From Candidatus Saccharimonadota bacterium (GTDB taxonomy: Bacteria; Pseudomonadota; Gammaproteobacteria; Enterobacterales; Enterobacteriaceae): DNA of 32,000 bases. The translations under genes and the position numbers were made by a program. How positions within the stretch are numbered: position 1 is the stretch's first letter; every line of letters starts with the position of its first letter. The stretch lies in assembly GCA_041942055.1 (NCBI GenBank), contig CP145874.1, forward strand, positions 390,001 to 422,000, written 5' to 3'. Under the pieces are notes generated by a model. It saw only the letters and a list, made by a program, of their open reading frames with translations, was not told where the DNA came from and did no database searches. This document shows, one piece after another, positions 3,572 to 5,410 of this stretch.

Positions 3572-5410
3572 ATGCTTAATAATTCCAATTTGACTAGTAA
3601 ATTACAATTTATACGCGAAGCCGAAAAGTTAAAAGATACTTTGCGTAGTTCGTATACATCAAAGGGACGTAAAGAAAGTACAGCTGAACATTCATGGCGA
3701 CTTTGTCTATTGGCAATGACTTTTGAAGATCAATTACCAACTATAGTAGATTTTGCTAAAATACTTAAGTTATGTGTGATACATGATTTAGGAGAAGCGA
3801 TTCATGGAGATATCCCCGCAATTAAACCGGTTGATTTGATAAAGAAGCAAAATCAAGAATATAATGATCTATTACAATTAATGGCAACTTTAGATAAAGA
3901 GAGCCGAAATAAATTTTTAGAATTGTGGAAAGAATATGAAGAATATTCATCTATAGAAGCACAAATAGTTAAAGCTTTTGATAAAATTGAAACTTTGATA
4001 CAACATAATCAGGGTGCTAATCCAGAAGATTTTGATTATTACTTTAATCTTACATATGGACAGAAGACAACTAATATTTTACCCTTCTTAATTAATCTTA
4101 GAAAAAAAATTGATGAAGAAACTCGAAAAAGAATCCTTTTTCAAAATAAAATTACAAAGGACGATGAATTAAAAAAGAAAGCGCTCATTTATCATCAGTT
4201 TCCAGCTCCTGGAAAAATACAAGTGACTGCTACTAAACCGTTATTTACACAGAATGAATTATCATTGGCTTATTCTCCTGGAGTAGCTGCTCCATGTTTA
4301 GAAATATTTGCAGATCCTATGACAGTATATAAATATACAGGACGTGGTAATTTAGTAGCAGTAATTTCTAATGGAAGTGCAGTACTTGGTTTAGGTAATC
4401 TGGGACCATTAGCAGCAAAACCAGTGATGGAAGGGAAAGTAGTACTTTTCAAAAAATTGGCCGGAATTAATGCCTTTGATCTTGAGATCTCTGACTCAAA
4501 TGATCCGGAAAAATTAACTAGTATAATTGCATCTCTAGAGCCGACTTTTGGAGGGATTAACCTTGAGGACATAAAAGCACCTGAATGTTTTTATATTGAA
4601 AAAGCCTTGCGTGAACGTATAAAGATTCCAGTTTTTCATGATGATCAACATGGTACAGCTATTATTTGTACTGCTGCAATTATAAATGGTTTACGTGTGG
4701 TTGATAAAAAGATGTCTGACATTAAGCTTGTAGTTTCTGGAGCAGGAGCATCAGCAATAGCTTGTTTAAATTTATTAGTAACATTGGGTATAAAAAAACA
4801 CAATATTGTGGTATGTGATTCCAAGGGTGTAATTTATAAAGGTAGAGACAAACCAATGTCACCTATCAAGGTAGTATATGCTATTGATCCTAGTGAAGGA
4901 GGATATACCTTGGATGAAGTAATAGCTGATGCCGATGTTTTTCTAGGTTGTTCTAGACCCAATGTTTTAACTCAAGGCATGGTAAAACGAATGGCTAAAA
5001 ATCCATTAATTTTGGCTTTAGCTAATCCAGAACCTGAAATTTTGCCTGCCTTAGCGAAAGCCGTAAGATCTGACGCTATTATTTGTACCGGTAGGTCTGA
5101 TTATCCTAATCAGGTTAATAATGTTCTCTGTTTCCCCTTTATTTTTCGTGGTGCCTTGGATGTTGGAGCTACAACTATTAATGAAGAAATGAAACTAGCA
5201 GTCGTCCATACTCTTGCAGATCTAGCCTATGCTAATAAGCAAGAAACATTCATATTTGGATCAGAATATCTAATACCTAAACCATTGGACCCCCGTCTAC
5301 TTTTGACCATTGCACCAGCAGTAGCAAAAGCTGCAATCAATTCGGGAGTTGCAACTAAACCAATTACAGATTTCGTTGCTTATGAAAAAAAATTATTAAG
5401 CTTAATTTAA
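3572..5410 (+). CDS. maeB: Fusion protein: N-terminal YfbR/HDDC2-type HD-domain 5'-nucleotidase (about aa 1-195) joined to an NADP-malic enzyme catalytic domain (maeB-derived, PTA-like C-terminal domain absent)
   Basis: A single 612-aa ORF with AGGA 7-8 nt upstream. HD part: [10 protein letters not shown] and [14 protein letters not shown], cf. E. coli YfbR SEHSLQV / YHDASEVLTGDLP. ME part from codon AAG 4157: [23 protein letters not shown]...[12 protein letters not shown]...[15 protein letters not shown]...[10 protein letters not shown]...[10 protein letters not shown]...[15 protein letters not shown]. This is near-colinear with E. coli MaeB residues 1 to about 425 and ends there. Confidence 0.85.

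Follow-up and report, generated by a model that had tools for sequence, protein, structure and literature searches.

The fused open-reading frame and its two domains

The 32,000-nucleotide stretch of DNA analysed here (the window; positions 390,001 to 422,000 of contig CP145874.1) contains on its forward strand a single open-reading frame (3572–5410) in which an HD-type phosphohydrolase is followed by a malic enzyme. The frame starts with ATG, runs through 612 codons without an internal stop and ends with TAA, as an earlier note on this DNA had described, and it is the same in two Logan contigs that match the window (L001 and L002). Residues 1–195 make up the HD part and residues 196–612 the malic-enzyme part.

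The DNA belongs to ‘Candidatus Dasytiphilus stammeri’, which lives as a symbiont in the bacteriomes of Dasytinae beetles, and the window comes from the strain of Dasytes virens or D. plumbeus. Metagenome-assembled genomes (MAGs) of this symbiont are the top matches in a protein search with the HD half, and the G+C content of the window is 31.5%; the bacteriome symbionts of Dasytinae have genomes of 437–601 kb with a G+C content of 28–34% (PMC11191362).

The HD part contains an HD_3 (HDDC2/YGK1-type) metal-dependent phosphohydrolase domain (3620–4078, forward strand; residues 17–169, Pfam PF13023, E 2.5e-40) with the metal ligands His40, His71, Asp72 and Asp137 present. The earlier note had seen in it a YfbR/HDDC2 signature, of which the HDDC2 half stands (E 6.6e-18 against the HDDC2 structure 4dmb), while the score against the E. 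coli YfbR equivalog NF003009 is only 23.2 bits, under the cut-off of 122; the domain is related to YfbR but is not YfbR itself. It shares the H...HD...D metal site and the helical domain of ~190 residues with proteins of the HD_3/HDDC2/yeast YGL101W type (PF13023; PDB codes 4dmb, 5yox and 1xx7), from which it differs in being covalently joined to a malic enzyme. Members of the HD_3/HDDC2 family are 5'-nucleotidases. One of the structures matched by the HD part, 1xx7, is labelled ‘oxetanocin-like’; OxsA is an HD phosphohydrolase that finishes oxetanocin A, a nucleoside-analogue antibiotic.

The malic-enzyme catalytic module (4157–5407, forward strand) covers residues 1 to ~421 of MaeB and has no PTA regulatory domain. 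The Pfam domains malic (PF00390) and Malic_M (PF03949) are found at residues 214–347 and 361–558, correspondingly. The NCBIfam profile for MaeB, PRK12861, is matched by residues 197–609 only at positions 4–422 of its 764, and so the PTA half is missing; the PTA-like C-terminal domain PF01515 has no match in the Pfam scan of the fusion. The module matches the E. coli MaeB structures 9m2i (E 4.9e-195) and 8jzo and shows 72–74% identity to Enterobacterales MaeB, and it is a MaeB orthologue by descent, although not a hybrid enzyme in architecture. Its NADP+ specificity and its decarboxylation of malate are predicted from the same 72–74% identity to characterised MaeB. All 38 conserved positions (those with a conservation of 95% or more across 132 diverse representatives) are kept in each of the three fused proteins known, which bears out the earlier note's reading that the malic-enzyme motifs are intact.

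Compared with MaeB (EC 1.1.1.40; PDB 9m2i; Bdellovibrio MaeB_ME 6zn4), with which residues 196–612 align end to end, the Dasytiphilus form lacks the acetyl-CoA-sensing PTA domain, a state common to all Dasytiphilus strains. In the fusion, moreover, the module lacks its own initiator Met, and its N-terminal arm, which in MaeB crosses the dimer interface, bears the HD domain of 195 residues. When truncated to its catalytic domain, MaeB is an active dimer that does not respond to acetyl-CoA, and in the structure of this form the N-terminal extension lies over the dimer interface with the first residues untraceable (PMC7902834), which makes an N-terminal appendage sterically conceivable. In an AlphaFold2 model of the full fusion, calculated from a 50-row alignment, pLDDT is 80–96 over most of the HD part and below 50 over long stretches of the malic-enzyme part, for which nearly all alignment rows are from Enterobacterales; given this poor second half, no conclusion on domain packing is drawn from the model.

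The proteins of the window strain and D. aeratus have a common deletion of 9–12 residues in the MaeB ‘hook’ loop (window ~5230–5260; malic-enzyme residues ~355–365). The loop, which in the hybrid enzymes touches the linker to the PTA domain, is still present in the other Dasytiphilus strains, which likewise have no PTA domain.

The open frame itself is real. The earlier note had feared a miscount in an A8 run (4102–4109, forward strand, at codon 177) or a T5 run (4137–4141); a gain or loss of one nucleotide in the A8 run would reduce the product to the HD part alone, with 180 or 199 amino acids. The Logan contigs of two other sequencing runs (SRR27812165 and SRR27811357) are identical to the window across the 15,410 bases compared, and the frame also stays open, with different linker sequences, in the orthologues from D. 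aeratus (contig L006; 92% identity in the HD part and 94% in the malic enzyme) and Psilothrix viridicoerulea (contig L003 = L008; 79% identity). Identical independent assemblies and diverged orthologues in open frame largely exclude a homopolymer or assembly error as its source.

The 612- and 622-amino-acid fused frames have no NCBI protein record in the collection searched, while flanking genes of the same MAGs, such as the UbiD and GMP-reductase-like neighbours, have accessions. The malic enzyme of the related D. alpigradus strain, moreover, is decayed. Both facts could be taken to mean that the frame is an error or that one of its halves is already dead. Such an artefact or decaying pseudogene is highly improbable, as the assemblies agree, three diverged orthologues all hold the frame, the ratios of nonsynonymous to synonymous substitution (dN/dS) lie far under 1, and the HD and malic-enzyme parts both retain their conserved residues. 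The locus has probably been set aside by the annotation pipeline. As the fused gene apparently has no public protein record, metabolic reconstructions may have treated the fused strains as lacking the malic enzyme as well as the HD phosphatase.

The junction and its history among the strains

Residue 2 of the malic-enzyme part aligns with residue 2 of MaeB, so that the AAG codon at 4157–4159 (forward strand; Lys196) occupies the position of Met1 in the alignment to 9m2i and 8jzo, and the replacement of this Met by Lys, put forward in the earlier note, holds. In D. aeratus this codon, the old maeB initiator, reads AGT, whereas P. viridicoerulea likewise has AAG. In front of it, on the same strand, lie a remnant of the HD C-terminal tail, RKRI (4124–4135, residues 185–188), after which the unfused relatives reach their stop within one or two codons, and the linker LFQNKIT (4136–4156, residues 189–195), which comes from the final ~21–27 nt of the old maeB 5' leader.

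The origin of these codons can be read by comparison with the unfused D. niger, where the HD gene ends with ...ACT AGG AAA AAA ATT AAA TAG. It is followed by a spacer of 109 nt, which ends ...TTTTCAATAAGGAATAATA ATG GAC GAT and contains, besides an AAGGAA ribosome-binding site, a TAA that lies in frame four codons 5' of the ATG. The junction reads ...ACT CGA AAA AGA ATC CTT TTT CAA AAT AAA ATT ACA AAG GAC GAT in the window, ...CGA AAA AAA ATT CTT TTG AAA AAT AAA ATT ATA AGT GAC GAT in D. aeratus and ...ATA AAA AAT ATT AAG AAA AAA AAA ATA ATA AAG GAT GAT in P. viridicoerulea. In pairwise alignment, the left breakpoint of the window strain and D. aeratus falls after ATT C, as in the D. alpigradus HD tail ATT CCA TAA, and the right one ~27 nt 5' of the old ATG. 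In P. viridicoerulea the break comes after ATT AA, as in the tail of D. niger, and ~11–17 nt of the leader are kept. All three fused strains have lost the AAGGAA site, the upstream TAA and the maeB ATG. The junction is a deletion scar, in which codons of the HD tail are joined to the 3' end of the spacer; the linker consists of a few HD-tail codons and the translated former 5' leader. Both marks of a fusion by intergenic deletion are found, that is, separate adjacent orthologues in relatives and a junction traceable to a gene tail and a spacer.

There is no in-frame ATG, GTG or TTG around the junction in the window sequence. The first in-frame start codon downstream is GTG 4220–4222, 21 codons into the malic enzyme, and is GTT in the orthologues of P. 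viridicoerulea and D. niger. A start there would cut off the conserved FPxPGK segment. With the maeB ATG and the AAGGAA site both gone, the malic enzyme is apparently made only as part of the fusion, which agrees with the earlier note. An AGGA Shine-Dalgarno-like motif read from the sequence 6 nt 5' of the ATG at 3572 (3562–3565, forward strand) is the sole recognisable translation start signal left for the whole fusion.

It is improbable that the frame is merely read through on paper and yields separate products, with the HD protein released by transcriptional slippage at runs of eight to ten A and the malic enzyme made by internal initiation at an ATT or ATA codon or at GTG 4220. Such runs (A8, A8 and A10) occur at codons 177, 184 and 189 in the window strain, D. 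aeratus and P. viridicoerulea, correspondingly, a slip of 1 nt either way would give an HD-only product of 180–199 amino acids, the size of the ancestral HD protein, and an ATT or ATA lies two or three codons before the old start. However, no purine-rich ribosome-binding motif precedes the junction in any fused strain, GTG 4220 is not conserved and its use would lose the FPxPGK segment. The A-runs occur in unfused HD tails too; they were thus inherited from the ancestor and do not represent an adaptation that came with the fusion. Slippage, moreover, gives the HD protein alone and never the malic enzyme alone, although it could still supply some free HD protein.

The history of the locus was followed in loci retrieved with a UbiD query, one genome per species, which gave 15 Dasytiphilus loci and 36 distant ones, and in a tblastn table of 15 genes in 16 Dasytiphilus strains, the window strain included. 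In 15 of the 16 strains the HD and maeB genes stand after a six-gene tubercidin-type cluster and are followed by infA, trxB and serS, the exception being the symbiont of Listrus sp. 01. The two genes are separate neighbours in 11 strains, which come from all four host clades, with a spacer of ~100–290 nt. The three strains in which they are fused (window strain, D. aeratus and P. viridicoerulea) all fall within the Dasytes clade, and it is in the unfused strains of this clade that the spacers are shortest (~100–110 nt). Separate genes are the ancestral and the majority state.

Decay or deletion of one gene or both is seen in four strains, those of Listrus sp. 00, 01 and 04 and of D. alpigradus. 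Both genes are deleted in Listrus sp. 01, which keeps a 692-nt remnant (L019 11207–11898). Listrus sp. 00 and 04 have a common nonsense codon inside the HD motif (HDLG*A; L009 ~11480 and L013 ~11476), and the gene of Listrus sp. 04 has an additional frameshift. The maeB gene of D. alpigradus (L018 11909–12815) is shattered into several frames and has an internal deletion.

The number of fusion events was addressed with ~28 kb per genome. A bootstrap value of 96.5% supports D. niger as the sister of the remaining Dasytes-clade strains examined, while P. viridicoerulea, the unfused D. alpigradus and the pair formed by the window strain and D. aeratus make a hard polytomy. Neighbour-joining bootstrap on 2,758 amino acids gives 42.5% and 49.5% to competing resolutions, and the site patterns for the three resolutions number 74, 91 and 70 in 4,128 codons and 199, 199 and 181 in 9,244 codons. 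As the internal branch has a length of about zero and neither the left nor the right breakpoint is the same in the two lineages, an origin by two separate deletions is no less likely than a single one, with a slight leaning toward two. The AAG at the old start, shared by the window strain and P. viridicoerulea, points to a single event. Gene content within the Dasytes clade also differs sporadically, with sohB missing in P. viridicoerulea and pdxH missing in D. niger (window 1–31870 compared with L057–L060).

By our own estimate, ~1 in 8 deletions that join both frames through a linker of 12 codons would preserve the reading frame without a stop at the given base composition, and thus a single fusion of this kind is not improbable as a neutral event. 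What goes beyond chance is the persistence of the fusion with both halves constrained.

Constraint on both halves and the probable erosion origin

Within the fused clade, pairwise Nei-Gojobori dN/dS is 0.38 for the HD part, which has diverged by ~20% overall, and from 0.14 (window strain against D. aeratus) to 0.32 for the malic enzyme. The comparison genes trxB, serS, gltX and UbiD of the same genomes give 0.18–0.28, and for housekeeping genes the range is 0.13–0.26. The HD part keeps 71, 71 and 70 of its 72 conserved positions in the three fused proteins, metal ligands included, with 71 in the window. Both halves have been under purifying selection since the fused lineages diverged, and both look functional.

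The fusion is probably a true translational one, brought about in an obligate symbiont of insects by erosion of the genome; both activities would be retained, and no functional coupling is needed to explain it. Its course began with an HD_3 gene just 5' of a PTA-less maeB, across a spacer of 100–290 nt that carried the maeB ribosome-binding site and presumably a promoter. A deletion then took the HD stop codon and most of the spacer, leaving ~21–27 nt of leader that now code for the linker, after which the old maeB ATG drifted to AAG. The malic enzyme would now be transcribed with the 7-deazapurine operon and translated from the HD start codon as a two-domain protein of ~70 kDa. In this protein the HD domain is expected to stay active as a metal-dependent nucleotide phosphatase, while the C-terminal module would go on converting malate to pyruvate, CO2 and NADPH as an NADP-malic enzyme that does not respond to acetyl-CoA. 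The fusion could thereby be seen as a tolerated in-frame outcome of the spacer loss that is found throughout the locus in this lineage.

Three points weigh against this erosion origin with two retained activities. The dN/dS of the HD part is somewhat higher in the fused lineages (about 0.4–0.5) than in the unfused clades (0.15–0.24), which suggests some relaxation or some adjustment or adaptation after fusion. A purely neutral account would be less comfortable if the fusion arose twice, which is possible. Internal initiation at the ATT or ATA just before the old start is also possible, to judge from the codons present there.

Gene fusions made by intergenic deletion were reportedly described in reduced endosymbiont genomes by Kelkar and Ochman in 2013. 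The present case is like such endosymbiont fusions in that co-directional neighbours are separate in relatives, the stop and the spacer were lost and both domains were kept. It differs in joining a phosphohydrolase to an oxidoreductase of central metabolism, without an evident shared pathway, and in that the event is possibly recurrent in one small clade. The combination of HD and malic enzyme is a new domain architecture, while the process, fusion in a shrinking genome, was already known.

The earlier note had found the architecture unfamiliar from characterised malic enzymes, and a search with the whole fusion supports this. Phmmer was run against 1.84 billion cluster representatives, with the best 150 matches all scoring at least 324 bits, and none of the ten multi-stretch or N-extended matches scanned among these 150 has an HD domain. 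Candidates for HD-malic enzyme fusions in this list, such as a 607-amino-acid protein with its malic enzyme at 197–590, turned out to be tandem malic enzymes or to have other N-terminal extensions. A typical protein with HD_3 and malic-enzyme domains should have scored into the best 150, with the caveat that the query's own cluster has no fused representative, so that a fusion inside a 50%-identity cluster could escape. A collection of 5.8 billion proteins holds only two fused 90%-identity clusters, both from Dasytiphilus and both derived solely from Logan assemblies. A protein search with the HD part alone did not relist the fused proteins, and the absence of fusions there is not used as evidence.

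The fusion alone opens no long-standing question. Its value is that of a datable case of a new two-domain protein made by genome erosion, in which the unfused ancestor, the deletion scar and the alternative losses (of HD, of malic enzyme and of both) can all be seen in sister strains.

The upstream cluster and the coupling idea

Upstream of the fusion, on the forward strand, the window contains genes for a QueD/TubA-like protein (169–702), a GMP-reductase/TubD-like protein (689–1840), a phosphoribosyltransferase/TubE-like protein (1833–2309) and a UbiD/TubF-like protein (2316–3533). Genes for a radical-SAM protein and GTP cyclohydrolase I lie just upstream of the window (L001 5280–6588). In the tubercidin cluster tubA-G of Streptomyces tubercidicus, for which the gene roles are known, TubB, TubC and TubA act in 7-carboxy-7-deazaguanine synthesis and TubD is strictly NADPH-dependent (PMC6112128). 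The six genes correspond to TubB, TubC, TubA, TubD, TubE and TubF, and the same six-gene core is found in the Streptomyces loci retrieved. No QueC-like gene is among the genes called in the locus, and the Dasytiphilus locus has no gene for the Nudix protein TubG. The GMP-reductase/TubD-like frame can be extended to GTG 611, while the database form has 383 amino acids from ATG 689; at NCBI the gene is named ‘IMP dehydrogenase’ (WWO97337.1 and WWO98277.1).

The core, with GTP cyclohydrolase I, a CPH4 synthase, a radical-SAM CDG synthase, a CDG phosphoribosyltransferase, a UbiD decarboxylase and a GMP-reductase-like reductase, is intact, contiguous and syntenic in 16 of 16 strains. The text of the genome paper (PMC11191362) contains no occurrence of deaza, tubercidin, queuosine or malic. 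The conservation of the cluster in genomes of 437–601 kb suggests an unrecognised conserved symbiont product, and this is a more striking and more consequential lead than the fusion.

In comparison with tubA-G, only Dasytiphilus has an HD_3 gene in the position of the terminal phosphatase, and some strains dispense with it. By analogy with TubG, HD_3 could serve as a nucleotide phosphatase, with 7-deaza-AMP as its proposed substrate. The 36 distant tubercidin-type loci, which have the six-gene core as well and come from Streptomyces, myxobacteria, alphaproteobacteria and cyanobacteria (Plectonema radiosum and Tolypothrix among them), contain neither an HD_3 nor a malic-enzyme gene within 10 kb in any case. 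The absence of HD_3 from these loci, together with its loss in some strains, weakens the argument from context for a 7-deaza-AMP phosphatase.

The earlier note had taken the junction for the place where the acquired cluster meets a resident gene. MaeB, with its 72–74% identity, does look resident, and the cluster UbiD has no relative above 42% identity outside the genus, where the closest relatives of HD, from Burkholderiales and Pseudomonas, reach 58–60%. The claim is thus supported in part. However, HD and maeB were already separate neighbours in the ancestor and, with HD_3 absent from all 36 distant loci, the acquired cluster could just as well end between UbiD and HD.

The earlier note had also speculated that the fusion couples NADPH generation to the pathway. 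In such an adaptive fusion, the NADPH-producing malic enzyme would be tied to the last 7-deazapurine enzyme, and the supply of reducing power (for the TubD-like reductase) or of pyruvate would be coupled stoichiometrically to the expression of the pathway. The strict NADPH dependence of TubD (PMC6112128), the placement of the malic enzyme under operon transcription and the HD start codon, the constraint on both halves and a possible double origin, with breakpoints that differ on both sides and a zero-length internal branch, are all in keeping with it. It is nevertheless rather unlikely. The fused partner is a phosphatase and not the reductase, NADPH diffuses freely, the unfused arrangement persists in 11 strains and other tubercidin-type clusters have no association with HD or malic enzyme, while a shrinking spacer alone also predicts recurrent fusion. 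As HD or maeB is lost in four strains and the core is intact in all 16, there is no sign of a required coupling, and the idea, with separate genes as the ancestral state, finds no positive support beyond co-expression.

A more specific form of this idea, in which two independent fusions, one in the P. viridicoerulea lineage and one in the common ancestor of the strains from D. aeratus and D. virens/plumbeus, were selected to tie the malic enzyme to the 7-deazapurine pathway kept by every strain of this nutritional symbiont, is likewise unlikely. If true, a deazapurine nucleoside would be a second, so far unrecognised, symbiont product, and the malic enzyme would feed its NADPH-dependent step.

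An Rfam search of the window and L001 found tRNAs only, with no preQ1 or other riboswitch. A promoter and terminator scan gave fewer promoter-like sites than in shuffled sequence and is uninformative at 31% G+C.

Downstream of the fusion lies the convergent infA gene (5407–5625, reverse strand), whose stop (5407–5409) overlaps that of the fusion (5408–5410). Unfused relatives have ~20–40 nt between maeB and infA, and the overlap in the window is a further sign of extreme compaction. On the other side, upstream of the cluster (L001 1734–5022, and the same region of L006–L020), there are genes for a NupC nucleoside transporter and a LytTR-type two-component pair. In D. aeratus the nupC gene is degraded, and several further strains do not have it. 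The histidine kinase of the pair occurs only in strains of the Dasytes clade, and its response regulator is kept in all strains except that of Danacea nigritarsis (L020).

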